A model generated the notes under the pieces. That model saw nothing but the letters and a program-made list of their open reading frames with translations. It was not told the DNA's origin and made no database searches. A DNA stretch of 64,000 bases from positions 2,786 to 66,785 of the forward strand of contig JBNPEH010000014.1 in assembly GCA_051117635.1 (NCBI GenBank), given 5' to 3'. This document shows, piece by piece, positions 5,301 through 29,534 of this stretch. This DNA is from Opitutales bacterium (GTDB lineage Bacteria > Verrucomicrobiota > Verrucomicrobiia > Opitutales > JABSRG01). The position numbers were made by a program, and so were the translations under genes. How positions within the stretch are numbered: the first letter of the stretch is position 1; each line of letters opens with the position of its first letter.

Positions 5301-6218
5301 TCAGGTTCCGCGGGTGACCGCGTGGTGCCAGCCCAGGAGATCGGCCGGCAGGCGGAGGCCCGCCAGCTGGCGATCCAGCGTCTCGGGCCGGTTGCGGAGT
5401 TTTCCCACCAGGGGCCGCAGGTCCAGGGTCAGGTCGGCCGGGCGCTCCGGGCCGGGGCGTTTGCCGGCTTCGACCCAGTCGCCGGGCAGGCCGAACGTTT
5501 CCAGGATGCGGCGGCCGAGGGTATACCGGTCCACCCGGTCCTTGCCCGCCCAGTGAAACAAGCCGCCCAGGTCCCGGCGTTCAGCCAGTTCGATGACGGT
5601 GTCGGCGACACCGTCCGCGCTGGCCGGTTGGCGCCATTCGTCCGTAAAAAGCACCGGCCGGTCCCCGTCCCGGATGCGCCGTAACAGGCTTTCGTGGACA
5701 CTTCGACGGCCCGACGGGCTGTTGCCCAGGATCAGGGGCAGGCGGAGGACCACCGGACCTTCGGGATGGTGTTCCAGCACCTCGCGCTCGGCCTTCAGCT
5801 TCTGGCGCCCGTAGGCGTTGACCGGCTCCGGCAGATCGGTCGGGTGGTAGGGCGGGTGGTCCCCCGCAAATACCTGGTCGCTGGACAGGTGGATGAACCG
5901 GGCTCCGAGGTGGAAACTGACCTGAGCCAGCTGACGGGGAAGCGCGACATTCAGCGCCTCCGCCCGCGCCGGATCGGTTTCGGCGGTACCCGGATGCGCG
6001 ACGGCTGCCGCGTTGATGATGGCGTCGGGCCAGGCATCCAGGGCGGGCCGTACCACGCGGCCGGGGTCCGAGAGGTCGATGGCCAGCGGCTCCCAGCCCG
6101 CCTCGGGGGTCGACGGACTGCGATGGTGCAGGGCCAGCACCGCATGGCCACGGCGGCGGGCACGCCGGCCGATCGCATGGCCGAGCAGCCCGGTGGCTCC
6201 GGTCAGGAGGATTTTCAT
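5301..6218 (-). CDS. RmlD-like NAD(P)-dependent sugar-nucleotide reductase (dTDP-4-dehydrorhamnose reductase family)
   Basis: MKILLTGATGLLGHAI Rossmann start (ATG at 6218, 13 codons inside the listed ORF), YGRQKLKAE catalytic YxxxK, and RmlD-type length. Confidence 0.75.
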   Translation of the reverse strand: MKILLTGATGLLGHAIGRRARRRGHAVLALHHRSPSTPEAGWEPLAIDLSDPGRVVRPALDAWPDAIINAAAVAHPGTAETDPARAEALNVALPRQLAQVSFHLGARFIHLSSDQVFAGDHPPYHPTDLPEPVNAYGRQKLKAEREVLEHHPEGPVVLRLPLILGNSPSGRRSVHESLLRRIRDGDRPVLFTDEWRQPASADGVADTVIELAERRDLGGLFHWAGKDRVDRYTLGRRILETFGLPGDWVEAGKRPGPERPADLTLDLRPLVGKLRNRPETLDRQLAGLRLPADLLGWHHAVTRGT

Positions 6219-6334
6219 CGGCACCGGGAGTCGGGCAGAGGGTGGGGCAAAAGGCAACCGATGAGCCGGAGTTTTGTTGCCATGGCGGGTGTTCGGCCGA
6301 CACCTTGACCTGCTCCCGGGGCGATTACCCGACC

Positions 6335-8742: not shown

Positions 8743-8783
8743 TCCGACCCGGCAACCGGACCGCCCGACAGCGACGTCTTCGC

Positions 8784-10463
8784 TCAGCTTTCGGTTGACG
8801 GCGAGCCCAGCAGGCCATCCAGCTCAATCAGGATGGATTCCCGGCCTTCGACGAAGAGGAAGCGGTCGCTGGCCAGGGTGCGGTAGGCGGTTTCGAGCAG
8901 TTCCCGGGGAGGCCGCCGCATGGTCAGGAGCGTTTCCAGCCGTTCGGCCAGCCGGTTGGTGCGGCCGATAGCCAGTTCCAACCGGATCAGTTCGGTCAGG
9001 GCGGCCTGGTTGTCGGGATTGGCCCGGATGGCGGAGGCCAGCACCCGGTGTGCCTCGTCGTAATGCTCCAGATCCTTCAGGCGACGCGAGACGGCCAACA
9101 GGGTTTCCACCCGGAGGCCGGAGTTCTGAAGAAATTCCTTGAGATAGATCTCGCCCAAATCGTTCTGGCCTGCCCCGAAGTGGGCCACCGCCCGGAGGCT
9201 GCTGAAAATGGCGCTCTTTTCCTCGAGCCAGCGCGGCTTTTCCTTGAACAGTTCTTCGGCGAAGGTGATCGCCCCGGCGTAATCGCCGGCGACGACATGC
9301 GCCTCGATCAGGAGCAGTGCGAAGGTCGAGATATCGAACTCCTTCTCCAGCGCGTGGCCGTAGAGGCGCCGGGCCAGACTGACGTCGCCGGTGTCGGCGG
9401 CAAAATTGGCCAGGAGCTGGATGGCCAGTTCGTCGTTTGAGAACTGACGGATGACATTGTCGACCTCACGTTCCTTGCGATCCTCCTGACCGGAGTAATG
9501 GTGGGCGTAGATCAGCTCGATCCGCGGACCCGGCGAGAGCGGGCTGTTGATGGCCCGGAGTACGGCATACTGCCGGGCTTTGTCGTACTCTCCCCTTTCC
9601 CGAAAGAACCGGCTGAGCTGGATGTAGATGGGCTCGGCTTCGGGGAAGCGGTCAAGGGCGTTCTCCAGTTTATCGATGGCCAGCGTTTCCTGACCACGAT
9701 CCCAGCTGATCTGCGCCGAGAGCAGTACCCCGTCTATCTTGGATTCCAGGTTATAGCGCTGCAGGAACGCTTCCGCCTCGTCGAAATTACCGCGAAAATG
9801 GTAGGCACGGGCCGCGGCGAAAGCAATCAGATGGGCCAGATCCTCGCTTTCCGGGGCCGGGGTCAGCAACCGTTCTGCCACCGCGATCACCCCGGCATCA
9901 TTCTCGTGGTTGAGCATCAGGCTGAGGAGACGCCGGATGTAGGCCGCATTGCGCTCGTTGTAATCGATCCCCTGCCTCAGAAGATCGATGGCCAGATCCG
10001 GGCGCCGGATGCCGAATTCGTAGAACTCACTGAGAATCAGGCGGCCTTCGGTGTTTTCCGGAGACCGGACCAGACCGGTCCGCAGGAGGTGAAGCGCCCC
10101 GCGGAAATCCTGCTGCTCAATGGCCGTTTTGGCCTTTTCGATAAAGTAATCCCCCATCTCCTTACGGTGGGCCTCCTGCCGGAAGGGATAGGCCAGCATG
10201 TTCACATAGCTGGCTTCGTCGTAATTCCGCTTGTACTTGAAAAACAGAAGGAGCGCGAAAGCGCCGGCCAAGTAGACGATGAGGGCGGTTCCCGCCACGA
10301 CCAACCCGATTCGACCCCAGCGTAACCGGATCCGGACTTTCTGGCTGCTGAGACGCTCCTTTTCGGCGAAACCCAGCCAAATCGCTTTCCTGCCGGTAAC
10401 GCCCGGTTCTTTGGAATCGCGGTCCGGCGGGGGGGTGCTGTTCTGGGGAGCGTCTTCGGCCAT
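8784..10463 (-). CDS. Membrane-anchored TPR-repeat protein
   Basis: One N-terminal TM helix (IGLVVAGTALIVYLAGAFALLLFF) followed by repeated TPR-like A/Y/L-rich helical units. Divergent from the polysaccharide export genes. Confidence 0.7.
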   Translation of the reverse strand: MAEDAPQNSTPPPDRDSKEPGVTGRKAIWLGFAEKERLSSQKVRIRLRWGRIGLVVAGTALIVYLAGAFALLLFFKYKRNYDEASYVNMLAYPFRQEAHRKEMGDYFIEKAKTAIEQQDFRGALHLLRTGLVRSPENTEGRLILSEFYEFGIRRPDLAIDLLRQGIDYNERNAAYIRRLLSLMLNHENDAGVIAVAERLLTPAPESEDLAHLIAFAAARAYHFRGNFDEAEAFLQRYNLESKIDGVLLSAQISWDRGQETLAIDKLENALDRFPEAEPIYIQLSRFFRERGEYDKARQYAVLRAINSPLSPGPRIELIYAHHYSGQEDRKEREVDNVIRQFSNDELAIQLLANFAADTGDVSLARRLYGHALEKEFDISTFALLLIEAHVVAGDYAGAITFAEELFKEKPRWLEEKSAIFSSLRAVAHFGAGQNDLGEIYLKEFLQNSGLRVETLLAVSRRLKDLEHYDEAHRVLASAIRANPDNQAALTELIRLELAIGRTNRLAERLETLLTMRRPPRELLETAYRTLASDRFLFVEGRESILIELDGLLGSPSTES

Positions 10464-10660
10464 AGAGAAATTCAGGAACGGGGGTTGCTGGGGTAAGCTT
10501 TCCTGTCCGCCGACAGGTAATTCGTCGAAGGGAGGTTAAAGACTTGAAGTGCTTCCTTGGCTAGCCATAAAACCTATTGCTCCTTACAGCTTATCTGTTC
10601 GTTTCGCACTGGACTTTGCATCCGCTGTGGGCGACTTTCCTCACGCAACACTCTGTTTCT

Positions 10661-11794
10661 ATGAACCGCATTACCAGCTGCATCCTCCTGGCCGTCATCA
10701 TGATCCTGCCCGCGTCCGCGGCGCCCATGGTCTCCCTGGGAGACAACGTCAACCTCTTCTTCAACGGCTCGGCCGGTCTCCGCTATGAGTCCAATGTGGC
10801 TCTGGACGAGGAAAATGAACTGGATGACTTTATCTTCCGGTTCACCCCGGGCATTGAGGTGGCCATCGGCAAGCGCGGGACCACCCCGGCCAACATCACG
10901 GTGATCTTCCGGGAGGAAATCCTGCGGTACAACGACAACGATCGCCTGGATACCGAGAAATTCTCCGCCCAGCTCAACGGCTCCTTTGACGACCCGAAAC
11001 TGAGCGGGAAGTTCGACCTCGGTTTTCGGGAACAGCAGTCCAACACGCCTGAAGCCAATATCGTCGCCGACCTCGTCGAGTCGGATGTCACGACCGCGGG
11101 AGCCTCCGTCGAGTATAATTTCAGCCCGAAACTGTCCTTCGGCGGCGGGTTTGCCTACCGGGAACTGGAATATGTGACCTTCACCCAGCTGGCCGACACC
11201 GAATCCCTCACCATTCCGCTGAACGCCTATTACGAAATTTCGCCCAAGCTTGACGCAACGGGCGGTGTCCGCTGGCGCTTCTCCGACATCGAGGGTGGGT
11301 CGGATCCGGACGACCTGTTCGTCAACGTCGGTCTGCGTGGCGATCTGGCCCCCAAGGTTACGGGTGAAATTCGCGTCGGTTTTCAGGAGCGTGAATTCAC
11401 GGCTCGCCCCATCGCCGATGAAGACGGCCTGTCGATCGAGGGGAATGCCACCTGGGCCGCCACCCCCAAAGTTCAGGTCCGCGGCCTGATTGCGCGGGAC
11501 TTCACTATTTCCGGTACCGGTGAGACCATTGAGAAAACCGACCTGCTTGCCTCCGGCAACTACGTCTACAATGAGCTGATTTCGTTTACCGGCAGCCTCG
11601 GGTACACCAATTCCGACTACAATGTCAGCGGTCGCGAGGATGATATCATCCTGTTCAGCACCGGGGTGCAGTATAAGCCGAACGACTATGTCAGCCTGAA
11701 TGCTCAATACCGTTTCTCAGACAATGATTCGTCCCGTGCCGGCAGCAGCTACACAGCCCATGTGCTACGCTTTTCTGCCGCACTCCGGTACTGA
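10661..11794 (+). CDS. Outer-membrane beta-barrel protein associated with the polysaccharide export genes
   Basis: Signal peptide MNRITSCILLAVIMILPASAAP, alternating amphipathic beta-strand pattern, and C-terminal aromatic end ...FSAALRY. Start taken at ATG 10661. Confidence 0.7.
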   Translation: MNRITSCILLAVIMILPASAAPMVSLGDNVNLFFNGSAGLRYESNVALDEENELDDFIFRFTPGIEVAIGKRGTTPANITVIFREEILRYNDNDRLDTEKFSAQLNGSFDDPKLSGKFDLGFREQQSNTPEANIVADLVESDVTTAGASVEYNFSPKLSFGGGFAYRELEYVTFTQLADTESLTIPLNAYYEISPKLDATGGVRWRFSDIEGGSDPDDLFVNVGLRGDLAPKVTGEIRVGFQEREFTARPIADEDGLSIEGNATWAATPKVQVRGLIARDFTISGTGETIEKTDLLASGNYVYNELISFTGSLGYTNSDYNVSGREDDIILFSTGVQYKPNDYVSLNAQYRFSDNDSSRAGSSYTAHVLRFSAALRY

Positions 11795-16081: not shown

Positions 16082-16157
16082 GTCCCCATAGTTCAATTGG
16101 ATAGAACGGCCCTCTCCTAAAGGGCTAATCCGGGTTCGAGTCCCGGTGGGGGCACCA
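16082..16157 (+). tRNA. tRNA-Arg (anticodon CCU), CCA encoded
   Basis: Hand-folded cloverleaf. Acceptor GTCCCCA/TGGGGGC (one G-U pair), D arm GTTC-AATTGGATA-GAAC, anticodon arm GCCCT-CTCCTAA-AGGGC (anticodon CCT), T arm CCGGG-TTCGAGT-CCCGG, discriminator A and CCA. 76 nt. Confidence 0.9.
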
Positions 16158-16664: not shown

Positions 16665-19343
16665 TCAGTATTCTCGCGGAGATTGGCGCGGTTTCAACTC
16701 GAGGAGCGCATAGGGATCAATTTCAGCTGATTCCTCCGGGTGAAGCGCCACCCAGACACGGTCCGGGGTGAGGGGAAGCTCGGTAAACCGGTGACCCAGG
16801 GCATCCTGCAGGGCGTTGGCCAGGGCGGGCACGACGCAGTTGATGGACACTTCCCCCAGGCCGCGAGCCCCGGCCGGCCCGTAAGGGTCGTCCGTCTCGT
16901 GAAAAACGACTTCCATGTCCGGGAAATGTCCCAACTGAGGAAGTCGGTAAAAACGGAAGCCCGGATTGAGGAGCTTCCCGAAATCATCGGTCACCAGGTT
17001 TTCGGTCAACGCGTAGCCCAACCCCATCGCATTGCCCCCAACCACCTGGCCTCGGGCGGTAATCGGATTGATGATACGCCCCGCATCGATCGCCTGGACG
17101 TTTTTCAGGATGACGATCTCCCCGGTGTCCGGATCCACCGCAAGGCGCATCCCCTGCACACCGAAGCTCACCGTGACTGGTTCCGCTGAATACTCCGCCG
17201 AAGCCTCCATGGGAAAGCTGCGACCTTCCTCACGGCGCCGTTTCAGGATGGTCGCGGCCCGGCGTACCGCTTCGCCCGCATGGTAGAGCTGTGCGCTGGC
17301 GTAGGCACCCGTATCAAACGGCGTTTCATCGGTGTCGGCGGCCACGAGGGTGATACCCCGTTGAGGCAGATCCAGTACATCGGCCGCTATCTGGCACAAC
17401 GCCGTGTCGGATCCCGTCCCGATGTCCGCCGCTCCCGTCCGGATGACCGCCCGGTCGGCTCCGGGCATCGACAACGTCACCGCCGACCGGCAACTGGCCG
17501 CCGGCCCGCTGGTCAGGGCGCTCAGCGCGACGCCTTCCCCGTAACGCCAGGCGCGATGCCCTTTTGCGCGGAACCCCCGTGCTTTTTTGAGCGCCGTTTC
17601 GACGCTGCGAAAGCATTGGTCGAGCGCGTAGCTGCCGATCACGTATGGCCCGGGGAGCGCCCCGTCGACCAGAAGCGGATCCCCGTACCGAACCACGTTG
17701 TTTCGCAGGAACCTGAGGCCCGATTGGTGCGTCTTGCGGGCCAGCTCGTCGAGATGGCTCTCCACGGCGAAAACAACCTGGGTACCGCCGTAGCCGCGAA
17801 AAGCGCCCGACGGCACGTGGTTGGTATAGACGGTACGTGCCCGGAAGCGCTTGTCGCCGCATCGGTAGGGGGCCAGGGCCTCGAAAGCGCCACAATGCAG
17901 GATGTCCTGACTGTGGTTGCCATAGGCCCCGGTGTCCGCCGTGACATCGACATCCAGGGCCAACAGGTTGCCCTGATCGTCAGCGCCGGCACGTACCCGG
18001 ATGGTCATCGGGTGGCGGACGCTGGTGGCGGAAAAAACCTCCTCCCGGGAGAGCTCCCAGGCCACGGGCCGCCCGAGGTTCCAGGCCGCCAGCGCGCACA
18101 GATCCTCCGTGAATACCTCCTGTTTATTGCCGAAGCCACCGCCGACCGCGGCCTTTTTCACATGGATGGCGGATTCCGGAATACCCAGCCGCCGACTGAT
18201 GTTTCGCCGGCAGAGAAAAGGCACCTGGGTGCTCGTCAGGATATGCAGCCGGTCGTCCGCGTCGCGGGAAGCCAGGGTCACCTGCGGCTCGAGATGGGCC
18301 GTCTGGACCCGGTGTGTGCGGTAAACCGCTTCGTGGGTGACGGGGGCCCCGGCCAGAGCCGCTTCGATATCGCCGACGACCGCATGCCGCACCGCTGCAA
18401 TGTTTCGCTCCGGATCCGCGATTTGCGAGCTCTCGGATTCCCCGTGCACCGTCGGGGCGCCATCCGCCATCGCTTCCTCGGGAGTAAAGACCGGGGTCAG
18501 CGGCCGGTACTGCACATGAACGGCGCGCGCGCCGCGTTGAGCGGCTTCGCGGGTCTCGGCCACGACGAAGGCGACCCGGTCGCCGATGAAGCGAACCTTA
18601 TTGTCCAACAGGTAATGATCCAGGCAGTCGCCGACCGGATCCGGATGACAGGCGGTTGTAAAGGGGACGCGTGACACGTCCTTCCAGGTGAAGACGCGGA
18701 CCACACCGGGTATTTCCAAAGCCTCGCCATCGTCGATACTCAGGATTTCCCCGTGTGCCACGGGCGACCGGACGGCCGCCCCGAACAGGCAGTCTTCCGG
18801 GAAGAAATCGACCGTGAAGCGGGGAGCTGATTCAACGATAGCTCGGGTGTGGCGGTTGGGAACGGGCGCCCCTACGCCAGCCCGCCCGGCATCAGGGTCC
18901 GGTTCAGGCTGCCCAACCCCGGGCGCCGGTCGCAGGCGGGCCAGGGCGCCCCGGATGGCGTCGTAACCGGTACACCGGCACAGGTTGCCCTTGAACGCCT
19001 CACCCGCTTCCTTCGGGCAAGCATCAGCCTTCGCCCAATGTTCCGCCGTGGCCATGAAGCCGGCGGTGCAGTAACCGCATTGAAAGGCCTGGCACCGGGC
19101 AAAGGCATCCGGCGCGGTCTCCAACCGGTCGGGCAGGGTCAATGCCCTGCCCTCGGCGCGAAAGGCCGGTGTCACACAGGCGTGGACCGGGTGACCGTCC
19201 ATCAGGACCGTGCAGCAGCCGCAATCGCCTGTTCCGCAGCCGTATCGGGCGGCCGTCAGACCGGCGTCGCGTAAAGCCGTCAGCAGGGTCCGGGCGGGAT
19301 GGACGTCCAGCGTGACTGACTGTCCGTTAACGCTCACCGCCAT
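16665..19343 (-). CDS. Xanthine dehydrogenase/aldehyde oxidase family protein: fused [2Fe-2S] small subunit + molybdopterin-binding large subunit
   Basis: N-terminal plant-type and second 2Fe-2S cysteine motifs (GCGTGDCGCCTV; CQAFQCGYCTAGF; CRCTGY). These are followed by an aldehyde-oxidase a/b-hammerhead and Moco-binding domains (GGGFGNK, long C-terminal region). Confidence 0.85.
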   Translation of the reverse strand: MAVSVNGQSVTLDVHPARTLLTALRDAGLTAARYGCGTGDCGCCTVLMDGHPVHACVTPAFRAEGRALTLPDRLETAPDAFARCQAFQCGYCTAGFMATAEHWAKADACPKEAGEAFKGNLCRCTGYDAIRGALARLRPAPGVGQPEPDPDAGRAGVGAPVPNRHTRAIVESAPRFTVDFFPEDCLFGAAVRSPVAHGEILSIDDGEALEIPGVVRVFTWKDVSRVPFTTACHPDPVGDCLDHYLLDNKVRFIGDRVAFVVAETREAAQRGARAVHVQYRPLTPVFTPEEAMADGAPTVHGESESSQIADPERNIAAVRHAVVGDIEAALAGAPVTHEAVYRTHRVQTAHLEPQVTLASRDADDRLHILTSTQVPFLCRRNISRRLGIPESAIHVKKAAVGGGFGNKQEVFTEDLCALAAWNLGRPVAWELSREEVFSATSVRHPMTIRVRAGADDQGNLLALDVDVTADTGAYGNHSQDILHCGAFEALAPYRCGDKRFRARTVYTNHVPSGAFRGYGGTQVVFAVESHLDELARKTHQSGLRFLRNNVVRYGDPLLVDGALPGPYVIGSYALDQCFRSVETALKKARGFRAKGHRAWRYGEGVALSALTSGPAASCRSAVTLSMPGADRAVIRTGAADIGTGSDTALCQIAADVLDLPQRGITLVAADTDETPFDTGAYASAQLYHAGEAVRRAATILKRRREEGRSFPMEASAEYSAEPVTVSFGVQGMRLAVDPDTGEIVILKNVQAIDAGRIINPITARGQVVGGNAMGLGYALTENLVTDDFGKLLNPGFRFYRLPQLGHFPDMEVVFHETDDPYGPAGARGLGEVSINCVVPALANALQDALGHRFTELPLTPDRVWVALHPEESAEIDPYALLELKPRQSPREY

Positions 19344-20149
19344 GGCTGCATCACCTCCTCCGCCAGTTGACGCGACCGCGCACGCCGGTAAACCGCCGGT
19401 GAGAGCGGATCTTCAATCCAGAGATCGTCCGGAATGGCCCGATCCAGGGCGGCGACCAGCGGGGCCTTGCCGGTCGGTACTGTTTCCCACTCCAGGAGGA
19501 TCGGGGCCGCAACCGAAGCCGCTATCACCAGACGGATATTTCCCGAAGCCAGACGCGTGCTGGCGGCCAGAGCGACCGGCGGGCCGTATCCGCCATAGCC
19601 GACAGCGCGGAAGTGGACGGGAGCGTACAAGGATTCCGCCTCCAGCCGGATCGAACGCAGGAGATCGCCCTGTTTCAGACGGGTTGTCCGCTTGCCGGTC
19701 TGAAAGCCGCGGGCCGGCCAGCTAACGGTGGTTCCGTCGGGTCGCCAGACGGTGTAGGTTGCATTCAGCAGGACCATCAGGGGGGCCAGGGTCCCGATAG
19801 GCAAAGCCAGGCAGAGGTTGCCGCCCACGGTGGCGGCGTGCGTCACCTTATAGGAGGCGCTCAGGGCGCGGGTCGCCGCTTCAAAGGCGGCGCAGGCCGG
19901 CCATGCCGCCGGCCAGGCTTCCGCCAGCAGGCGACTCAAGGTGCAGGTGGCTCCGAGGGTGACCCCGGCCTCGGATCGCTCCAGATCGGGCCAACCCAGG
20001 CTGTGGAGGTCAACCAGATGCCGCACCCCCGGCTGCGCTTCGCTATACAGCCAGGTGCCCCCCGCCACGAAGCGGGTATCCCGCCGGGGAAAAGGCAGAT
20101 CCTCGCGGGTCTTCGGTCGGAGACAGCTTTCGATTTCGGGAAGGTCCAT
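19334..20149 (-). CDS. FAD-binding subunit of the xanthine dehydrogenase-family enzyme (CoxM/FAD_binding_5-like)
   Basis: FVAGGTWL and ATVGGNL motifs typical of the molybdopterin-dehydrogenase FAD-binding domain. Overlaps the downstream subunit by 10 nt. Confidence 0.8.
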   Translation of the reverse strand: MDLPEIESCLRPKTREDLPFPRRDTRFVAGGTWLYSEAQPGVRHLVDLHSLGWPDLERSEAGVTLGATCTLSRLLAEAWPAAWPACAAFEAATRALSASYKVTHAATVGGNLCLALPIGTLAPLMVLLNATYTVWRPDGTTVSWPARGFQTGKRTTRLKQGDLLRSIRLEAESLYAPVHFRAVGYGGYGPPVALAASTRLASGNIRLVIAASVAAPILLEWETVPTGKAPLVAALDRAIPDDLWIEDPLSPAVYRRARSRQLAEEVMQPWR

Positions 20150-20835: not shown

Positions 20836-23800
20836 ATGGCCTTTCCAACCGCTTCATCCGAAACGCTCAGTCTGGAGAAGAAACGCCGGCTGTTCCGGCT
20901 GATGTTGACCAGTCGCCAGGGCGACCTGCGGGAGCAACGGCTGCTCCGGCAGGGCCAGGGCTGGTTTCATATCGCCGGGATGGGTCATGAGGGCATGGCC
21001 GTTCTCGGTGCGCTCCTCCGCGAGTCGGATTACGCCTTTCCCTATTATCGGGATCGGGCGCTGGCTCTGGCCAAAGGCATCACCACCGAGGATTTTGCGC
21101 GCGCATTCCTGGCCAAGCGCACCAGTTCCAGCGGGGGTCGGCAATTGACCGGCCACTTTTCCAGCCACATGCATCGGATTTTCAGCCACGCCTCACCCGT
21201 CGGGGCCCATGCCCTGCCCGCTGTCGGCTTTGGCTGGGGCATTCAATTGGACGGGCGGGACGACGTCGTTCTGTTGAGCCTCGGTGAGGCGGCCACCCGG
21301 CAGGGTGAATTCTACGAAGCGGTCTGTTTTGCCCAGGAGCACCGGCTGCCGGTCATCTTTGTCGTCGAGGACAACGGCCTGGCCATTTCCACCCATACCG
21401 AGGCCGGCACGCCGCGGACCCTCCAGCTGTTGGGCAACGACCGGTGGGTGGACGTGGACGGCCTCGATGTGGACGCGCTCCAGGCAGCCGGAAGTCGGGC
21501 GATTGAACGAGCGCGCGGCGGCGAGGGCCCGGGATACCTGTGGGTCCGCACCGCCCGGTTGCACAATCACAGCAGCACCGACGACCAGCGGCTTTATTTG
21601 ACCGAGCAGGAACAGGCTGCGTTGGAGGACCGCGATCCTGTCGCCCGTCTCCGTTCCGATCTCCTGGCTGCGGGTGAGGTGGATCGGGAGACCCTCGAGG
21701 CGGAGGAGGCCGACATCGCTGCGGAAATCCGTTCCATCTACGAACAGGTCGCCAGGGAAGAAGATCCGAAGGCGGAGGAACTCGTCCTGCACCTGGAAGG
21801 AGCGGCCCCCGAGCGAACCGGTCAGGAGGATGGTCCCGAGCTGCCCGATCCCTGCCGACTGGTGGACGCGGTCAATCTGACTTTCCGGCATGCGCTCGAA
21901 TCCCGTGAGGACGTCGTCTTCTTTGGCGAAGACATCGAGGACCCGAAGGGTGGGGTGTTCAACCTGACTAAGGGGCTCTCGTCCGATTTCCCCAAACGGG
22001 TGGTCAATGCGCCTGTCGCTGAGGCGACAATCTGCGGACTGGCCGTGGGTCTCGCCGCTTACGGTAAACGGCCCGTTTTCGAGCTTCAGTTCGTGGACTT
22101 CATCCACCCGGGCTGGAACCAGCTTTTCAACAACATGGCCAACCTCCGCTGGCGCACCTTCGGGGACTGGCGGTGCCCGGCCATTCTCTATGCCCCCTGC
22201 GGCGCCTACCTGCCGGGCGGAGCCATCTGGCACAGCCAGTCCGGAGAAAGTGCGCTGGCTCAGATTCCGGGCCTGCGGGTGCGGATGCCTTCCCGCCCGC
22301 ACGAGGCTCGCGAGGCCTTTCAGGAAGCTCTGGCCAGTGACGATCCGACCATCGTTCTCCTCCCCAAGCACCAGTTCTGGACCCGCCAGGCCGCGACACC
22401 GTCCGGGCGATCCGCCGGTATCCTGAGGGCGGTGCGTCGCCATACCGGCAACAGCCTGACGGTCGTCTCCTGGGGTAATCCGCTGGAGATCATCGATCAG
22501 GTCCTGGCCGACCGGGAGGACCTCTCCGGCGCCTTGGATGTCTATGACCTGGTTTCCCTCGCTCCCTGGGACCGCGAAACCGTGGCCGACTCGGTTCGCC
22601 GGACGGGCCGCCTGCTGGTTGTGCAGGAGGACACGCCGGCCTGCTCGATCGGTCAGCGGATCATCGCCGAACTGACCGGCGACCGCGCGGTGTTTGCCGC
22701 CCTGGTCGCCCCGCCGCGCCTGATCGCACGAGCCCCTGTTCCGATCGGCTTCAATCCCATTTACGAGTACGCCGCGCTCCCCGACCGTCCGGGTATCCAG
22801 GCTGCTGTCGACGCGTTGCTAGCCTGGTCGACCCCCGCTACCAACCGCCCGGTGGTTCCCCCCGCTTCCGCCGCTTCCGCCCCATCATCCCTGCCCATGA
22901 CTGATCAACCGCCGTCGCCGGCCGCCTCTTCCGGTCGCAAACAGATTAAGGTGCCCATCCTCGGCGAGGGTATTCGTGAAGCCCGGCTGGTCGCCTTGCT
23001 GAAGGAACCCGGCGAAGCCGTGGAGCCGGATGAAGCGGTTTGCGAAATCGAGACCGACAAGGCGGTCTTCCCCGTGGAAAGTCCCTGCGCGGGCACCTGG
23101 GAGGTCTGGGCCGTGGACGAGGGGGCCACCGTCAGCGTCGGGGATACCCTCGGTTCCCTTGTCCCGGATGATCCCGAACTGGCCGACGCCGAGCGTCCGT
23201 CTTCTTCCACGGCGGGGGTTGCGTCTGAGGATTCGGAGGGGGAGGGGGACGCCAACGAGGTGGCCCTGCGGCAGGCGCCCGGGCTCCCGGAAGGCGTTCT
23301 CCGGCAACTGCCCGGAATCGTGCCCGCGACCATCACCATTCAAGCTGCCTGGTCTGCCATCAAGGAAGCGCGCCGTGCGGCGAAGGAAGAGGCCGGTTCC
23401 ACCGGTGAAGCCCCGAGCCCCTCGCTGATGGTCGCCTGGTCAGTCACCCGGGCGATGCGCCAGCACCCTGTCTTTGCCTCGATCGTCAAGGGCCGGCAAC
23501 TCCTCTTCGATCCCGACGGCTTCGACCTCGGGGTGGCGGTCGCCCTGGATAACGACGCCCTGGAAACAGCCGCCGTCCGCAAAGCCGGTACCCTGGACTG
23601 GCCCCGGTTCCAGGAGGCCTACCGGGCTGCCGTCCGTGCGGTCCGGGCCGGCGAGGTAGCGTCCAAAGCCCGCGTTTCCCTGCAGCTTTCGTCTCTGGGC
23701 ACCTTTCCCGTCATTCATGCCGTTCCCATCGTCGTGCCTCCGGCCGTGGCGACCCTCTTTGTCGGTAATGCCCGGCTGAGGCCGCGTGAATCGAACGACG

Positions 23801-23961
23801 GTGTGCTGCATGAACCCGTGGTCGACCTCGTCCTGACCTTTGACCACCGCTGGGTTAACGGGGTGGGTGCCGCCGCTTTCCTCAACGATATCCGGCGGCG
23901 GATGGAGGAATTCGATCTCCAACATCCGGAGAAGGAACCCTCCGACAGCGGCCGGGCATGA
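20836..23961 (+). CDS. 2-oxoacid dehydrogenase E1alpha-E1beta-lipoyl-E2 fusion protein (single 1041-aa polypeptide)
   Basis: - aa 1 to ~330: E1 alpha TPP-binding region (SLGEAATRQGEFYEAVCFAQEHRLPVIFVVEDNGLAIS).
- aa ~345-680: E1 beta (VVFFGEDIEDPKGGVFNLTKGL, VVNAPVAEATICGLAVGLA).
- aa ~700-775: lipoyl domain with the CEIETDKAVFPVESP lipoyl-lysine motif.
- aa ~800-1041: acyltransferase catalytic domain with LTFDHRWVNGVGAAAFL. Confidence 0.85.
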   Translation: MAFPTASSETLSLEKKRRLFRLMLTSRQGDLREQRLLRQGQGWFHIAGMGHEGMAVLGALLRESDYAFPYYRDRALALAKGITTEDFARAFLAKRTSSSGGRQLTGHFSSHMHRIFSHASPVGAHALPAVGFGWGIQLDGRDDVVLLSLGEAATRQGEFYEAVCFAQEHRLPVIFVVEDNGLAISTHTEAGTPRTLQLLGNDRWVDVDGLDVDALQAAGSRAIERARGGEGPGYLWVRTARLHNHSSTDDQRLYLTEQEQAALEDRDPVARLRSDLLAAGEVDRETLEAEEADIAAEIRSIYEQVAREEDPKAEELVLHLEGAAPERTGQEDGPELPDPCRLVDAVNLTFRHALESREDVVFFGEDIEDPKGGVFNLTKGLSSDFPKRVVNAPVAEATICGLAVGLAAYGKRPVFELQFVDFIHPGWNQLFNNMANLRWRTFGDWRCPAILYAPCGAYLPGGAIWHSQSGESALAQIPGLRVRMPSRPHEAREAFQEALASDDPTIVLLPKHQFWTRQAATPSGRSAGILRAVRRHTGNSLTVVSWGNPLEIIDQVLADREDLSGALDVYDLVSLAPWDRETVADSVRRTGRLLVVQEDTPACSIGQRIIAELTGDRAVFAALVAPPRLIARAPVPIGFNPIYEYAALPDRPGIQAAVDALLAWSTPATNRPVVPPASAASAPSSLPMTDQPPSPAASSGRKQIKVPILGEGIREARLVALLKEPGEAVEPDEAVCEIETDKAVFPVESPCAGTWEVWAVDEGATVSVGDTLGSLVPDDPELADAERPSSSTAGVASEDSEGEGDANEVALRQAPGLPEGVLRQLPGIVPATITIQAAWSAIKEARRAAKEEAGSTGEAPSPSLMVAWSVTRAMRQHPVFASIVKGRQLLFDPDGFDLGVAVALDNDALETAAVRKAGTLDWPRFQEAYRAAVRAVRAGEVASKARVSLQLSSLGTFPVIHAVPIVVPPAVATLFVGNARLRPRESNDGVLHEPVVDLVLTFDHRWVNGVGAAAFLNDIRRRMEEFDLQHPEKEPSDSGRA

Positions 23962-24084
23962 ACCCGGCCATTTGATTTTACCCGGCCGGGGAACGGTATT
24001 CAGCTCGGCTTCGCGGTACGGATTATACCGATTTCAGCAAAGCGGTCCTGACCGTCAGCCATCCAGCCGCTGCGGCAAGAGGCT

Positions 24085-24734: not shown

Positions 24735-25418
24735 GTGGCTACCCCTCAACAAACCGCTGTCGTTGTCGAGGATGAGCGCCTTTTCCGCTGTGTCCTGGAA
24801 AACGTCCTCAGCAATGAGCTCGGCCTGACCGTATACAGCGCTGCCGACGGCGACACGGCGCTGACGCTTTGCCGGGAGCATCAGCCCGACCTCGTCGTCC
24901 TCGACCTCGGCATTCCGGCCCGCAACGGTCTGGCCGTTGCCGAGATTTTGCTGAAGGAACGTCCCCGGCTCCGCATCATCGCCGTGAGCAGCCGTTCGGA
25001 CACCTATACGATGTACTGGGTGAATAAATTCGGCCTGCGCGGTTTCGTGGACAAGCGGGCTGAGACGCCGGAGAACCTCGAGCAGGCTTTCCGGCAGGTC
25101 CTGCGGGGGGAAACCTATTACTCGGATGTCGTCAGGACCCGGCACGACCTGCTGGTTCGCGATGATTATGCCTTCAGCAAAATTCTCAGCGAGCGGGAAC
25201 AGGAACTCCTTCACTATTTCGGGCTGGGTATGTCCAACGAGGAAGTGGCGGAATTCGCCCGGATCGGCGAAAAGACTGCCCAGACCCACCGCTACAACAT
25301 CATGCGGAAACTGAAGCTGCACAGCACGCCCGAGCTGCTCCGCTATGCCACCCAAAACGGCTTCGACCTCTACGACCCGCGGGATCGGGTGGAGCCGGAG
25401 GGCTCACACGGCGGGTGA
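24735..25418 (+). CDS. Response regulator, NarL/FixJ (LuxR HTH) family
   Basis: Receiver domain (VVVEDERL..., DLVVLDLGIP phospho-Asp region) plus C-terminal LuxR HTH (LSEREQELLHYFGLGMSNEEVAEFARIGEKTAQTHRYNIMRKL). GTG start. Confidence 0.85.
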   Translation: MATPQQTAVVVEDERLFRCVLENVLSNELGLTVYSAADGDTALTLCREHQPDLVVLDLGIPARNGLAVAEILLKERPRLRIIAVSSRSDTYTMYWVNKFGLRGFVDKRAETPENLEQAFRQVLRGETYYSDVVRTRHDLLVRDDYAFSKILSEREQELLHYFGLGMSNEEVAEFARIGEKTAQTHRYNIMRKLKLHSTPELLRYATQNGFDLYDPRDRVEPEGSHGG

Positions 25419-28400
25419 ATCGGCCTTCAGCCCTTGCTCCAGTTTCTCCAGCGCACGTGACAATCGGAGGATTTCCCCGTCGGTTTCCACCCATGCCTCC
25501 CGTTCCGGAAACTGGCCCGATCGCAACCGGTCCTCAATGGGTCTCAGGATGTTGGATACATTGGAAAAGCCCACCAGGTCGCACTTGCCGGCAATGTGGT
25601 GCACCGCCCGGGCTGCCGCCTTCGGGTCTTCGCCGGTCAGGGCCGCCCGGGCCTGAGCCCACCCGTTGCGAATATCACGCCGCAGGGTCCGGACCGCCTC
25701 CAGGCGGGCTGTCGGGTCGTCCTTGCGATAGAACAGGTAGTCGGTTCGCAGCGGCGGGTCGTCGGCGGCCGGGGCGGCGGCGTCGCTCTCGGAAGTCGGG
25801 ATTGCTGTCTCACTCATGGATTGGGTCGACCGGCCGAATGCCTTCGTCAGGCCACTCAAGACACCACGGAGGTGGTCGGGGTCCACCGGTTTGCTGATAA
25901 ACCCGTCCATTCCCGCGTCCAGGCAGGCCTTCCGGCTTTGTTCGGTGGCATAGGCGGTCACCGCGAAGATCGGTACCGAGCGCAGGGTTTTGATGCGGCG
26001 GGCGAATTCGGGTCCCTCGCCGTCGGGCAGGCTGAAGTCCAGTAGCACCGCGTCGAATCGATCCTGGCGAAACACCCTCAGCCCGTTTTCGCCGTCCCCG
26101 GCGACCTGGGAGGTGCATCCGCACGCCTCCAGCATCTCCGCAATCACCTGCCGGTTGTAGACGTCGTCCTCGATGACCAGGACATGCAGGTCCAGCGGTT
26201 CGGACGATGCGAGGGGCAGGGCAACCCCGCCCGCCGGCTCGGAGACCTGCCCGCCCTCCTCCGCCTGAACGGGGGAGCTGTCCGTTTCCGAAAGCGTCAG
26301 TTCGAAACTGAAGCAGGTGCCCTGACCCGGTTGCGAGTCCACTTTCAGGGAACCGCCCAGACTCAGGGTGAGGGCGCGTGCGATGGATAGCCCCAGGCCG
26401 CTGCCGCCGCCCGGCATCAGTCGCCGCCCGGAGGAACCCTGCGCATAGGGCTCGAATATCCGGGCGCGCTCCTCTTTGGGAATGCCGAGCCCCGTGTCTT
26501 CGATGCTGAAGCGGGCGGTCAGCCGGCCCGGTCGGGAGCCGCCCCGGGTCTCGCAATGGACCCGGATGCCCCCGGTTTCCGTAAATTTGATGCCATTGGA
26601 AACCAGGTTGGCCAGGACATCGAGCAGGATCTGTCGGTCGACCAGAACGGGCGCTTCGGCGCCCTTGTAGTCGATCTTCAAATACAGCCCTTTGGCCTCT
26701 ACCTGATAGGCGAAGAGACTCTCCAGGGTGGTCAGGACCGACTCCAGCGCGACCGGTTCGGGGTTGGGGACCACTTTGCCGGATTCGATTTTGGAGAAGT
26801 TGAGCACGTCGTCGATATGACCCTTGAGGTATTGGCCGCAGGCCAGGATGCGCTCCAGAGAGGGCCTCAGTTCCGGGTGCTCCGCCCGTTTCAGCAGCAG
26901 TTGGCTGGTGCCGATGATGCCGTTGAGCGGGTTGCGAATGTCGTGGCTCATGCGTGCGACAAAGGCCGACTTCGCCTTGCTCGCGCGGTTCAGGTTTTCA
27001 TTGGCCTTGATCAGTTCGAGCGTCCGGGAACGGACTGATTCCTCCAGGATGGCGTTGATCTTGCGCAGGCGGCGAGTCCGCCAGTGGCCCAGGGCCAGCA
27101 GACCGATTACCGCGACGAAGGCATACCCGGTGTAGGCTCCCCAGGTGCGGTACCAGGGTGGGGCGATGCTGAAGCGCAGTTCGGCCGGCGGGGAAAGCTG
27201 GCCGGCCAGATCCCGTTGACGTACCTCGAAGACGTAGTCTCCCTCGCGCAGGTTCGTGAAATCGCGGTAGGTTTGTCGGTTCCAGTTGGACCAGTCCGAT
27301 TCGAATCCCCGCAACCGGGTCTGGAACTCCACGTGGCCGCCCAGATGGAATTGCGGCGCTGCGAATGCGAAGCGAAGGTCGTTGAAGGCGAAGGGCAGTT
27401 GCTCCAGTGCCTCGCCCGTCAGCGGCAGGGAGGCCCGTTGGCCGGGAGCATCCGGGTCGCGGTGCGCCAGCCGGCGCAGCAGGGGAGGCTCCGGTTGTTC
27501 GGGCTCCGCAGGCGGCTCGACTGTAGTCCGGATTAATCCCGTGCTGGCATTGAGCCAGAGGGTGTCTTCTTCGGCAACCAGACTCCACACCTTGCCGCCG
27601 AACGATCCGGGCAGGGTGCGCAGGGTGCCGACCTCGATGGGATCGTCCGGAAGCGCACCGCGAAGCCACAATAATCGGGCCCGTTGCCTGTCCTCGGCCA
27701 GATGGTAAACAAAGGCTTCATGGCCACCCGGGGCTGATCCCAGGACCGAGTTCTGCGCATTTATCCCGGGTGAAAGGATCCGCTCCCGCCGGCCAGGATT
27801 GTGCGGATCGTGGATTTCAAAAAGACCCGCCTCGTCCAGCACCAACAGCCGTTGGTTGATTTTTGCGAACTGCGGGGGATTGCGTCGGTTCGGCAGCGAG
27901 CCCTCACCGCTGAGACGCGTCGTCACGAACCGATAGCCCGTCCCGGAAGGGTGGATACCCACGCGGTATACGCCGTTGTTGACTCCGGTCAGAAGCAGTT
28001 GGCCGTCCGCCAGCTCGACGAATGAGGAAATCGGCCCGGGAATATCTTCAAGCACCCCGCCCGGGACCCAACCCGAAGCCTCCCGCAGATAGTGGCGGGC
28101 GCCGGTGTTGCTGCCGGTAAACAACAAATCATCGTAGGTTTTTGATGGATACACAGTGAACACCTGCCCGGCGTCCCCGTCGATGGTGGTCAGTCTCCCG
28201 CCGTCCCAGGCCAGCAATCCCGCCTGGGAGCCAATCAGCAGCGGTCCTCCCCGGGGCGTGGCCAAATCAAAAGCAGGTCTGCTGAGGCCGGGTACCTGCC
28301 GGAACCGGGGGACCAGAGAATCAGCTGCCCGATCCAGGCGATAGATGTTGTTGCCCGCCGCGACATGAAGGTTGTTGTCGTACCGCGCGGCTGCCAGAAC

Positions 28401-29534
28401 CGGGGTCTCCGCCAAGCCCAGGCGCTCGTCGAGACGATAGGCGTTGAGGTCGAGAGCCACCCGGGTCAGTCCGTTCTGGCCGGCCACCCACAAGCCCTGA
28501 TCCCTGTCGAGGAGCGTGTTGTTGGCCCGATCATCCGTCAGCCCCTGCCCCCCCTTCAACTGATAGCTGAGACGCCCGTCGGCCTCGATGACCAGGACAC
28601 CCGCCTTGAACGTGGGTAAGGCCAGTCGTCCCCCGGGCAATGGCTCGACGGCCATCAGCAGGGCATCAACCAGCGTATCATCGCCTTCGGTCGAAAAGCG
28701 CCGCCATGCGGAGCTGTCTCTCAGGTACAGACCGTTTCTGAGTGTTCCAATCATGGTTATACCGTCCTCCCGATCCATCCGAATACCCACGATCACATTG
28801 CCGGGAAGCGCCTCTGCGGCAAAGCGTCTATCCCATCGGTCCCCCAGGAAGCGATAAAGGCCGTCACCGGCTACGCTGAGAAACGAGATGTTGCCTGACC
28901 GAACGGGTGAAATTCTGGATGCCGCCTCAAACCGGGTCAGGGAGAAGGCCGTTCCATCCCAGCGGTAGACGGTCTGGTTGCCGAAAAAGAGGGTTTGCCC
29001 GAGGTCTGCGTGATGATGCACCGCCCAGATCGGCTCGATCGGCAAATCCCCGTCCTCCAGATGGTCGAGCAGGCTGGTGTACCGGTAATCCCCCTCGGGC
29101 GTGGCCGCAAAGTAACCCATTTCATCAAGAGCCCCAATCCAGATGCGCCCGCCGGGTCCGCTGTCGATACCCCGCACGTTCGTCGCCCCGCCCGGATCGT
29201 GCTGGGTCCAGTGCTGACCGTCGAACCGAACCACCGCCTGGTTGCCGACCCAGATCTGGCCCTGCGCATCCTGGTGGACCACGAAGTTTTCCCATTCGGA
29301 GCTGAAGGCTTCCGCTCCGAACTGCTCGGTCATGGGTAGGCCCGCTTCACCGTTCAGGATGCACCGGGACAGCCCCCAGATCAGCAGCAGCGCGACCCGG
29401 CGGCCATCCGACCTGAGTCCCCTGCCGTTAGCACGAACCCGGTCCCCTTGCCTTCGGGAAAAACGCATCCACCGCATTCCTTCCGTCCGGCCCCGAACGC
29501 CCAGACCTGTTTTTACTAAAATTTTTGTAAACAT
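25404..29534 (-). CDS. Hybrid sensor histidine kinase with periplasmic beta-propeller/Y_Y_Y sensor, HisKA-HATPase, receiver and HPt domains
   Basis: - Repeated propeller-type units and a Y_Y_Y-like segment (FQTRLRGFESDWSNW...GDYVFEVRQRD).
- TM helix, H-box SHDIRNPLNGIIG, and G-boxes (DTGLGI, GGSGLGLSI).
- Receiver (VLVIEDD...AVLLDFSLPDGEG) and HPt (HHIAGKCDLVGF).
- The true start may be the internal MRWMRF/MRF (29477/29468).
- The 3' end overlaps the regulator gene by 15 nt (convergent). Confidence 0.85.
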   Translation of the reverse strand: MFTKILVKTGLGVRGRTEGMRWMRFSRRQGDRVRANGRGLRSDGRRVALLLIWGLSRCILNGEAGLPMTEQFGAEAFSSEWENFVVHQDAQGQIWVGNQAVVRFDGQHWTQHDPGGATNVRGIDSGPGGRIWIGALDEMGYFAATPEGDYRYTSLLDHLEDGDLPIEPIWAVHHHADLGQTLFFGNQTVYRWDGTAFSLTRFEAASRISPVRSGNISFLSVAGDGLYRFLGDRWDRRFAAEALPGNVIVGIRMDREDGITMIGTLRNGLYLRDSSAWRRFSTEGDDTLVDALLMAVEPLPGGRLALPTFKAGVLVIEADGRLSYQLKGGQGLTDDRANNTLLDRDQGLWVAGQNGLTRVALDLNAYRLDERLGLAETPVLAAARYDNNLHVAAGNNIYRLDRAADSLVPRFRQVPGLSRPAFDLATPRGGPLLIGSQAGLLAWDGGRLTTIDGDAGQVFTVYPSKTYDDLLFTGSNTGARHYLREASGWVPGGVLEDIPGPISSFVELADGQLLLTGVNNGVYRVGIHPSGTGYRFVTTRLSGEGSLPNRRNPPQFAKINQRLLVLDEAGLFEIHDPHNPGRRERILSPGINAQNSVLGSAPGGHEAFVYHLAEDRQRARLLWLRGALPDDPIEVGTLRTLPGSFGGKVWSLVAEEDTLWLNASTGLIRTTVEPPAEPEQPEPPLLRRLAHRDPDAPGQRASLPLTGEALEQLPFAFNDLRFAFAAPQFHLGGHVEFQTRLRGFESDWSNWNRQTYRDFTNLREGDYVFEVRQRDLAGQLSPPAELRFSIAPPWYRTWGAYTGYAFVAVIGLLALGHWRTRRLRKINAILEESVRSRTLELIKANENLNRASKAKSAFVARMSHDIRNPLNGIIGTSQLLLKRAEHPELRPSLERILACGQYLKGHIDDVLNFSKIESGKVVPNPEPVALESVLTTLESLFAYQVEAKGLYLKIDYKGAEAPVLVDRQILLDVLANLVSNGIKFTETGGIRVHCETRGGSRPGRLTARFSIEDTGLGIPKEERARIFEPYAQGSSGRRLMPGGGSGLGLSIARALTLSLGGSLKVDSQPGQGTCFSFELTLSETDSSPVQAEEGGQVSEPAGGVALPLASSEPLDLHVLVIEDDVYNRQVIAEMLEACGCTSQVAGDGENGLRVFRQDRFDAVLLDFSLPDGEGPEFARRIKTLRSVPIFAVTAYATEQSRKACLDAGMDGFISKPVDPDHLRGVLSGLTKAFGRSTQSMSETAIPTSESDAAAPAADDPPLRTDYLFYRKDDPTARLEAVRTLRRDIRNGWAQARAALTGEDPKAAARAVHHIAGKCDLVGFSNVSNILRPIEDRLRSGQFPEREAWVETDGEILRLSRALEKLEQGLKADSPAV

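Follow-up and report, generated by a model that had tools for sequence, protein, structure and literature searches.

A widespread Verrucomicrobial gene joins the E1alpha, E1beta, lipoyl and E2 domains of a predicted 2-oxoacid dehydrogenase in one chain

Background

Can the E1 and E2 components of a 2-oxoacid dehydrogenase, with the lipoyl domain that serves them both, be carried on one polypeptide that has no docking domain? The question is raised by a gene at positions 20836..23961 (plus strand) of a 64,000-nucleotide (nt) stretch of DNA from an Opitutales bacterium of the phylum Verrucomicrobiota (assembly GCA_051117635.1, contig JBNPEH010000014.1, positions 2,786 to 66,785), hereafter referred to as the window. 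An original prediction, made by reading the letters of the window, held that E1alpha, E1beta, a lipoyl domain and an E2 acyltransferase domain share a single open reading frame (ORF) in this gene, and that canonical E2 proteins' peripheral subunit-binding domain (PSBD) is missing from it.

2-Oxoacid dehydrogenase complexes are textbook non-covalent assemblies in which an E2 core recruits E1 and E3 via a small docking domain. To our knowledge, the sole studied exception to non-covalent E1-E2 assembly is the actinobacterial protein OdhA, which still borrows lipoyl domains. We report here that the Opitutales gene represents a widespread fusion whose product is quite probably a functional E1-E2 module, on a single chain, of a lipoate-dependent 2-oxoacid dehydrogenase, most likely of read-through origin and with branched-chain compounds as its likely substrates. 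We infer activity, substrate, E3 partner and oligomeric state from sequence.

Results

The gene is a single ORF of 1041 amino acids (aa) that begins with ATG at 20836, ends with the stop codon TGA at 23959-23961 and has zero internal stops. Its product is 100% identical to an NCBI protein entered as 'MAG: thiamine pyrophosphate-dependent enzyme [Opitutales bacterium]' (MAG, metagenome-assembled genome). In agreement with the original prediction, five Pfam domains lie in this one 1041-aa frame, namely E1_dh (aa 21-313, E 2.6e-44), Transket_pyr (aa 344-512, E 4.3e-28), Transketolase_C (aa 532-646, E 1.7e-14), Biotin_lipoyl (aa 702-773, E 1.7e-14) and 2-oxoacid_dh (aa 828-1027, E 1.1e-27). The E1alpha module (20896..21774; all modules are on the plus strand) comprises E1_dh, with an HSS(T/A)DD loop inside it, and is supported by its match to the solved chain 1um9_A. 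The E1beta module (21865..22773) comprises Transket_pyr and Transketolase_C, contains Glu396 and is supported by Foldseek. Alpha and beta, which are separate polypeptides in alpha/beta-type E1 enzymes, are fused in-frame here.

Linker 1 (aa ~663-701; 22822..22938) is rich in Ala, Pro and Ser and leads from the C-terminus of E1beta to the lipoyl domain (aa 702-773; 22939..23154), which was recognized by Pfam and by PDB matches and carries the predicted lipoyl-lysine, K742. Linker 2 (aa ~776-811; 23161..23268) is acidic and of low complexity, and occupies the position at which a PSBD would be expected. The E2 acyltransferase domain follows (aa ~812-1027; 23269..23916; Pfam and alignment to solved E2 cores). 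By family alignment this domain begins near residue 812 and not at 828, and its start at GLPEGVLRQLPGIVPATI is the counterpart of the N-terminal arm in canonical E2 cores. Motif scanning located the two signature motifs where they had been predicted, ETDKA at residues 739-743 (nt 23050-23064) and DHRWVNG at residues 1003-1009 (nt 23842-23862), the latter including His1004 and Asn1008. Members of the family normally end in ...IERFDL(V), beyond which the window protein extends by a hydrophilic tail of 12-13 aa that is not conserved, QHPEKEPSDSGRA (23920..23958). Both linkers vary across the family, and an AlphaFold2 (AF2) model of the window protein depicts them as disordered, the predicted local distance difference test (pLDDT) falling below 50 at residues 666-698 and 784-829. 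The top Foldseek PDB match of this model was Corynebacterium glutamicum OdhA, and E1beta chains of the alpha2beta2 type came next.

The E1 half is of the alpha2beta2 type. Its best solved relatives are Pyrobaculum 1ik6, Thermus 1um9, the Pseudomonas putida branched-chain 2-oxoacid dehydrogenase (BCKDH; 1qs0/2bp7), the Geobacillus stearothermophilus pyruvate dehydrogenase (PDH; 1w85) and human BCKDH (1dtw). For E1beta, PDB matches reached 4e-48, and Foldseek returned 1um9_B, 1w85_B, 1qs0_B and 1dtw_B. The motif that binds thiamine diphosphate (ThDP) and Mg, G150-E151-A152 ... D179-N180, aligns with GDG...NN of 1um9_A, and its residues (G150, E151 and N180 among them) are invariant across 41 homologues. 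Human BCKDH E1alpha also has Glu instead of Asp in this motif. The same 41 homologues share the FPYYRD, GRQ and HSSxDD motifs, the ThDP-activating Glu396 of E1beta within NAPVAE and all five residues of the lipoyl turn (E739, T740, D741, K742 and A743) without change. The predicted E1 thus has an E1_dh domain bearing the ThDP/Mg motif and an E1beta Pyr and C-terminal domain bearing the Glu. The lipoyl domain matches the solved lipoyl domains 1lab, 1pmr and 1ghj and holds a lysine in the (E/D)(T/S)DKA turn, and lipoylation of this lysine is predicted. In two marine Opitutia lineages, ETDKA is replaced by ETAKA (locus L006, ORF ~3871-6954; locus L009, ORF ~3889-6933).

The E2 domain aligns with solved E2 cores across the catalytic Ser and His1004. 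Ser952/953 (in LSSLG), His1004 and Asn1008 are invariant in more than 40 diverged sequences, distant members of the family included. This is the catalytic arrangement expected of a domain resembling chloramphenicol acetyltransferase (CAT), with His in DHRxx(D/N)G and Ser ~52 residues upstream, and the invariance of Ser, His, Asn and the motifs around them argues for a working CoA acyltransferase. The Asn of DHRWVNG had been considered unusual, a view that does not survive comparison, since the same His/Asn pair is native in the active E2p of Azotobacter vinelandii (His610/Asn614; Hendle et al. 1995, as cited in the reference list of PMC8421416). Structures of that protein (1eaa, 1dpb, 1dpc and 1dpd) are among the matches of the E2 domain. 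Past the last long helix, the family C-terminus consists of F-D-L-(V) only; it lacks the Phe-containing insertion of 3 residues to which actinobacterial E2p owes its trimeric state.

The fusion is far from restricted to the window. When 1.84 billion cluster representatives were searched exhaustively with HMMER, full five-domain proteins ranked at the top (P0121-P0127, 41-51% identity). Among protein clusters formed at 90% identity, the 119 that follow the identical protein are 49-52% identical, have lengths of 990-1070 aa and have the same five Pfam domains. Isolates in these clusters belong to Coraliomargarita (C. sinensis, C. parva, C. algicola and sp. W4R53) and Lentimonas, and both the finished C. 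algicola chromosome CP138858.1 (5.38 Mb) and the Lentimonas contigs hold one gene with all five domains. When one genome per GTDB species was scanned using the lipoyl and E2 part as query, relatives were found in at least 575 species genomes, and the locus-level analyses described below cover the best 80 of these genome matches. About 39 of the best 80 are of the Opitutales type (Puniceicoccaceae, Coraliomargaritaceae, Lentimonas, Thalassobacterium and Oceanipulchritudo), 18 are Chthoniobacterales or 'Spartobacteria', 20 are unclassified Verrucomicrobiae or Verrucomicrobiota, and one is an Akkermansiaceae MAG. The other two are MAGs labelled Polaribacter sp. (L030) and Burkholderiaceae (L084), in which Verrucomicrobial-type fusions (42-47% identity to the query) are present most likely as mis-binned contigs rather than through horizontal transfer.

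In all loci with sufficient DNA upstream except L043 and L080, the lipoyl and E2 motifs lie ~1000 residues into a stop-free frame, that is, in an ORF of at least 1000 aa. Continuity at the domain junctions, which had been named as the point to verify, was thus confirmed by one frame in ~70 independent assemblies that reach far enough upstream, as well as in complete isolate genomes. Linker length and sequence change from lineage to lineage with the reading frame preserved, which is a signature of selection on the fused protein. The fused architecture is conserved and its catalytic motifs are intact. As to the two broken loci, L043 (3787-6966) has a single in-frame stop exactly between its E1alpha and E1beta parts, and in L080 (3774-7044) the fusion is broken by a frameshift. 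Both breaks are probably assembly errors or pseudogenes, and L043 could be a genuine secondary split.

The absence of a PSBD between the lipoyl and catalytic domains was upheld. Using Pfam, E3_binding (PF02817) had no match at E<=1 in the whole protein and none at E<=10 in its C-terminal 353 aa (residues 689-1041), and the PSBD signature PxxR...G(T/S)GxxGR(I/V), applied as a regular expression, occurred zero times in 150 representative homologues. Between the lipoyl and catalytic domains, the family has a linker of ~25-40 variable residues. In most members it measures ~25 residues, which is too short for a PSBD plus linkers of its own. Because the regular expression and Pfam also overlook degenerate PSBD-like stretches that are visible by eye, as in the L087 E2 and in P0129 (both described below), the case for absence is built mainly on how short and how poorly conserved the linker is. 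A hidden PSBD was rejected on Pfam at E<=10, the regular expression and a linker that by eye is too short and unconserved, taken together.

No E3 gene is adjacent either, as had been noted. The E3 motif GGxCxNxGC is absent from all six frames of the 64 kb window, Pfam found no Pyr_redox family or lipoate-metabolism family among the 40 window ORFs scanned, and in none of the 80 related loci did a motif scan reveal an E3-motif ORF within ±6 kb. It is common for E3 genes to be unlinked and to serve more than one complex, as exemplified by Escherichia coli lpd and the L-protein of glycine cleavage, and in the glycine cleavage system E3 reoxidises the lipoyl protein without stable docking. The fixed 1:1 ratio of E1 protomer, lipoyl domain and E2 that had been proposed follows from the fusion itself.

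A likely origin of the gene is indicated by its unfused relatives. In the HMMER search, the five-domain proteins were followed by E1alpha-beta-only proteins of ~660 aa (P0128, P0130 and P0132; 42-46% identity), and fused E1alpha-beta proteins of this size are common among relatives. The nearest E1 relatives, P0128 (locus L087) and P0132 (locus L088), which are 42-45% identical, have a lipoyl-plus-catalytic E2 immediately after them, encoded by a 394-aa gene 2 nt downstream in L087 and by a 343-aa gene 0 nt downstream in L088. Both small E2s contain Biotin_lipoyl and 2-oxoacid_dh only by Pfam. A stop codon and a gap of 0-2 nt stand in these two loci where the window protein has linker 1 and its family an in-frame Ala/Pro/Ser linker. 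Such adjacent unfused pairs make read-through the simplest origin of the Verrucomicrobial gene, which most likely arose in this way from adjacent bkdA-like E1alpha-beta and small E2 genes. We further infer that the fusion is ancestral to a large part of the Verrucomicrobiota. Distant five-domain proteins from metagenomic taxa (P0134, P0139 and P0144; ~35% identity, with DHRPFNG or DHRILNG) may be independent fusions.

The unfused pairs also bear on the loss of the PSBD. The L088 E2 has an inter-domain linker of 34 residues that likewise leaves no room for a PSBD, and none is present, though its E1 is encoded separately. In the L087 E2 the linker measures 98 residues and includes a stretch that is PSBD-like by eye, APRTRKFLIDQNILELAKDIPASGRKLSIADVEAFL, and is unscored by Pfam. 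Loss or decay of the PSBD is thus not simply a result of fusion. The idea that covalent attachment of E1 had made the PSBD redundant is therefore plausible but not the whole story, given that the L088 E2 does without one despite its separate E1. In the region L088:4181-9048, the pair (an E1alpha-beta gene of 671 aa and the PSBD-less E2 gene of 343 aa) lies directly downstream of genes for a LuxR-type regulator (Autoind_bind+GerE) and a LuxI-type autoinducer synthase, and might provide acyl-homoserine-lactone synthesis with an acyl-CoA that is unusual and possibly branched.

The E1alpha-beta-lipoyl module was also found with other C-terminal partners. In 35 of the 43 long representatives scanned, a KAS III/FabH-like part (PF08545+PF08541) is present instead of the E2 acyltransferase, in a large set of proteins of ~1090-1170 aa; examples are P0145, P0146, P0148 and P0164 (alignment A4), and a locus of this kind is L086:587-4015. 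P0146, which is WP_218080544.1 from an isolate, the cyanobacterium Anthocerotibacter panamensis, carries no annotation beyond 'beta-ketoacyl-ACP synthase 3'. The KAS III fusion suggests a direct hand-off of the 2-oxoacid-derived acyl group from lipoate to the condensing enzyme, by which CoA would be bypassed. Two further layouts were seen. P0163 (1942 aa) combines E1alpha-beta, lipoyl and KAS III with a ketoreductase (KR) and an acyl carrier protein (ACP) domain, resembling a polyketide synthase. In P0129 (1227 aa), E1alpha-beta and lipoyl are followed by a stretch that is PSBD-like by eye, then by the catalytic domain of E2 and lastly by an ACP (PP-binding).

Upstream of the fusion gene and divergent from it, at an intergenic distance of 686 bp, are two genes of a molybdoenzyme of the xanthine-dehydrogenase family (16665-19343 and 19334-20149, minus strand; Pfam). 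This enzyme, of the xanthine-dehydrogenase/CO-dehydrogenase family, is made up of an 892-aa fused 2Fe-2S and molybdenum cofactor (MoCo)-binding subunit and a 271-aa FAD-binding subunit. No functional link between the molybdoenzyme and the fusion gene was found. Downstream of the fusion gene are two small ORFs without a Pfam match and a gene for a hybrid histidine kinase (25404-29534, minus strand; Pfam). The remainder of the window is ordinary chromosome, with exopolysaccharide genes, transporters, TonB and receptor genes, peptidases and amidases. A tRNA-Arg gene (anticodon CCT; 16082-16157, plus strand) was the sole Rfam match in the 64 kb at the gathering threshold, and at that threshold there was no riboswitch or other RNA element upstream of the fusion gene. 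A terminator-like GC hairpin (23950-23969) with a T-rich tail lies over the stop codon on the plus strand (23950..23979 in all); it was found by a consensus scan only, and would fit a monocistronic gene. The fusion gene also stands alone in Coraliomargarita and Lentimonas, where it lies between genes for sensor kinases and for a BLUF protein.

When 661 neighbouring ORFs were clustered all against all, no conserved operon partner emerged, with no family present in more than 18 of the 80 loci. In 11-16 of these loci, which belong to Chthoniobacterales and unclassified Verrucomicrobiae, a crotonase/enoyl-CoA hydratase gene is found 1-4 kb downstream together with genes for an HMG-CoA-lyase-like protein and for an acyl-CoA carboxyltransferase, for example in L082, L081, L062, L041 and L071 (~7000-11200 in each). 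This set resembles the distal leucine-catabolic pathway; the HMG-CoA-lyase-like neighbour scored 208 bits to NF004283 against a cut-off of 246. The same five loci have aspartate kinase and threonine synthase genes upstream.

For the substrate, several kinds of evidence were compared. A BCKDH (EC 1.2.4.4 / 2.3.1.168) would act on 2-oxoisovalerate, 2-oxoisocaproate and 2-oxo-3-methylvalerate, and a genomic link to Leu/Ile/Val catabolism or to the priming of branched fatty acids would be expected of it. The best PDB match of E1alpha was the Thermus thermophilus branched-chain E1alpha 1um9_A, at 150 bits versus ~95 for PDH and other E1s, and the JGI family name is '2-oxoisovalerate dehydrogenase E1 component'. 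NCBIfam gave sub-threshold matches only, to PDH E1alpha/E1beta and to several E2 equivalogs. Since all equivalogs stayed below their cut-offs, no curated model assigns a substrate class. The substrates are most likely branched-chain 2-oxoacids, as suggested by the Thermus E1 match, the JGI/KEGG-style name, the leucine-type neighbours and the sister KAS III fusions, none of these four indications being decisive. The products would then be isobutyryl-, isovaleryl- and 2-methylbutyryl-CoA, for catabolism and/or as primers of branched fatty acids.

Discussion

The window protein has the same catalytic modules and motifs as canonical branched-chain and Gram-positive PDH complexes (1um9, 1qs0/2bp7 and 1w85/1b5s), and shares with them the lipoyl-then-catalytic order of E2 and flexible Ala/Pro-rich linkers. 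It is one chain, whereas the canonical complexes consist of three polypeptides, E1alpha, E1beta and E2, plus E3. Its E1:E2 ratio is fixed at 1:1, and its C-terminal inter-trimer segment is 2-3 residues shorter. Canonical E2 has a PSBD and the window protein does not, so that it lacks the site at which E1 and E3 are known to dock. With A. vinelandii E2p (1eaa, 1dpb, 1dpc and 1dpd) it shares DHRxxNG, the Asn four residues past the catalytic His, and the catalytic Ser. That E2p, in contrast, is a stand-alone protein with three lipoyl domains and a PSBD, and forms a cubic 24-mer via a longer C-terminal 3-10 helix.

Two known fusions are closer in principle. OdhA/KGD (8p5t, 8p5r and 2xt6) carries E1 and an E2 acyltransferase on one polypeptide, as the window protein does, and the OdhA structure demonstrates that the dimer interface of E1 and the trimer interface of E2 can both be satisfied in a fused E1-E2 chain (PMC10415282). 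In OdhA/KGD, however, E2 is N-terminal and E1o is a single-chain homodimeric enzyme with the domains 2-oxogl_dehyd_N and OxoGdeHyase_C, whereas the window protein has E1 first with alpha and beta fused. OdhA/KGD has no lipoyl domain and borrows lipoyl groups from E2p, whereas the window protein has its own, and OdhA/KGD is restricted to Actinobacteria. The window protein falls outside that class, with the NCBIfam model PRK12270 matching on the E2 part only (31 bits versus a cut-off of 878). An 'LB-PS-E2-E1' full fusion was described in three Thermoleophilia from Pfam architectures alone as 'never reported before', and was proposed to work without lipoyl domains in trans (Bruch et al., bioRxiv 10.1101/2020.07.24.212647). 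Like the window protein, it combines lipoyl domain(s), the E2 catalytic domain and E1 on one chain. It differs in that the E3-binding domain is kept, there are two lipoyl domains, E2 comes first and E1 is of the 2-oxoglutarate type; it is present in three genomes only, whereas the window architecture is present in at least 575 species genomes.

Our comparison indicates that the window protein is set apart from these known fusions by having an alpha/beta E1 first, one lipoyl domain and no PSBD. It would be further set apart in that its layout is the rule in large Verrucomicrobial clades and that its nearest unfused relatives show its origin. No published description of the E1alpha-beta-lipoyl-E2 fusion, nor of the E1alpha-beta-lipoyl-KAS III fusion, was found in the full-text literature searched, which takes in few subscription journals. 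The E2-containing layout is present in sequence databases under generic annotation, and an earlier report of it may exist.

A reaction cycle can be proposed that is modelled on that of the canonical complexes. The N-terminal 660 residues would form a fused alpha-beta E1, two chains of which would pair to give two ThDP active sites. E1 would decarboxylate the 2-oxoacid and reductively acylate lipoyl-K742, which would be tethered by the flexible Ala/Pro/Ser linker of ~40 residues. By means of the second flexible linker, the same lipoyl domain would carry the acyl group to the C-terminal CAT-like domain, expected to be a trimer, where it would be passed to CoA via Ser952/953 and His1004. Reoxidation of the dihydrolipoyl group would fall to a lipoamide dehydrogenase (E3) whose gene lies elsewhere, acting on the lipoyl domain without stable docking, comparable to L-protein on H-protein, or via an unknown contact.

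Each chain contains one dimerising and one trimerising module, and the smallest closed assembly would therefore be a hexamer. OdhA/KGD is such a homohexamer, of 800 kDa, with two E2o trimers connected by three E1o dimers (PMC10415282). The ~150 residues of linkers and lipoyl domain in the window protein are non-rigid, so that a 24- or 60-mer core with tethered E1 dimers is equally possible. We offer tentatively the broader idea that the family forms a self-sufficient E1-lipoyl-E2 machine without PSBD, with a non-canonical assembly and a free E3, as one branch of an E1alpha-beta-lipoyl family with varied acceptors. Under this proposal the assembly might be a D3 hexamer like that of OdhA, or else a cage in which E1 dimers act as cross-links, set by the obligate E1 dimer and E2 trimer interfaces plus a shortened C-terminal 'knob', which would replace the classical E2 core. 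The acceptors in the wider family would be the E2 domain (to CoA), KAS III (for fatty-acid or polyketide priming), and ACP and KR-ACP.

Several observations weigh against a functional single-chain module for branched-chain substrates. PDH_E1_alph_x scored 184 against a cut-off of 411, and every NCBIfam equivalog was far below its cut-off. No E3 or lipoylation gene is near the fusion in the window or in the 80 flanks scanned. Only a minority of loci have the leucine-type neighbours, on mixed strands, neither the window nor Opitutales has them, and the HMG-CoA lyase and carboxyltransferase matches among them are below curated cut-offs. The AF2 model of the window protein has a mean pLDDT of 70, which is of moderate confidence. 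Lastly, the C-terminal segment, from which canonical cores build the inter-trimer 'knob', falls 2-3 residues short of its counterparts in E. coli and A. vinelandii E2p, and assembly into a canonical 24- or 60-mer core is accordingly not assured.

These points have to be set beside three other explanations. Were the fusion an assembly or sequencing artefact, separate adjacent genes would have been merged by frameshift or stop-codon errors in a MAG. The window does come from a MAG, unfused relatives exist with 0-2 nt between E1alpha-beta and E2, and two of the 80 loci are broken, L043 by a stop and L080 by a frameshift. Nevertheless, the same frame is found in more than 120 clusters of independent origin, with the finished chromosome CP138858.1 and Lentimonas included. 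It is intact in ~70 of the 80 GTDB loci, comprising all those with enough upstream DNA bar two, and it is maintained although the linkers vary in length and sequence. We regard the probability of such an artefact as vanishingly small; frameshift or mis-assembly is effectively refuted by the single frame in isolates and in ~70 independent loci. The substrate leaves more room for doubt, since the same chemistry could serve pyruvate (as a PDH) or acetoin/2,3-butanedione instead of branched-chain 2-oxoacids. The top NCBIfam models are PDH E1alpha/E1beta and succinyl- or acetyl-transferase E2, all of them sub-cut-off, and both a Gram-positive-type PDH E1 (1w85) and an archaeal E1 (1ik6) also match strongly. 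In Opitutales, moreover, the gene is monocistronic among unrelated genes, so that its context is silent on substrate. A pyruvate or acetoin substrate is nonetheless rather unlikely in our estimation, with E1alpha scoring 150 bits to the Thermus branched-chain E1 versus ~95 to PDH E1alpha, a Chthoniobacterales subset having leucine-catabolism-like neighbours, and the E1alpha-beta-lipoyl-KAS III fusion of relatives appearing to fit short branched acyl primers.

The remaining explanation is that the protein has an E3-independent role or one outside a complex, in which the lipoyl domain would serve some other acceptor or the E2 domain would be mainly structural. The missing PSBD is in keeping with this, as are the shortened 'knob' and the fact that 0 of 80 loci have an E3 inside 6 kb; sister proteins that carry KAS III for E2, or that add ACP or KR-ACP, point to non-CoA acceptors. 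On the other hand, the Ser, His and Asn of the E2 domain and its motifs are invariant in more than 40 diverged sequences. Lipoate turnover needs an oxidant for the dihydrolipoyl group, and E3 genes are established to be often unlinked and shared. We consider a role of this kind improbable and favor a single-chain E1-E2 module that passes its acyl group to CoA.

Conclusions

A widespread one-chain E1 with a swinging arm and an E2, and without a docking domain, would be a minimal and genetically simple natural system. Three questions could be addressed with it: what architecture is needed for substrate channelling, how E3 is targeted without a PSBD, and how dimer and trimer interfaces are accommodated on one chain. 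Domain fusions of pathway partners are common and precedents exist. Recognition of the fusion would correct the generic names 'thiamine pyrophosphate-dependent enzyme' and 'E1 component' in hundreds of Verrucomicrobial genomes. Such annotation hides the E2 function, and metabolic reconstruction could consequently call the complex incomplete in error. If the substrate is branched-chain, the enzyme is relevant to the catabolism of amino acids and to the synthesis of iso/anteiso fatty acids in polysaccharide degraders that are abundant in marine and soil habitats.

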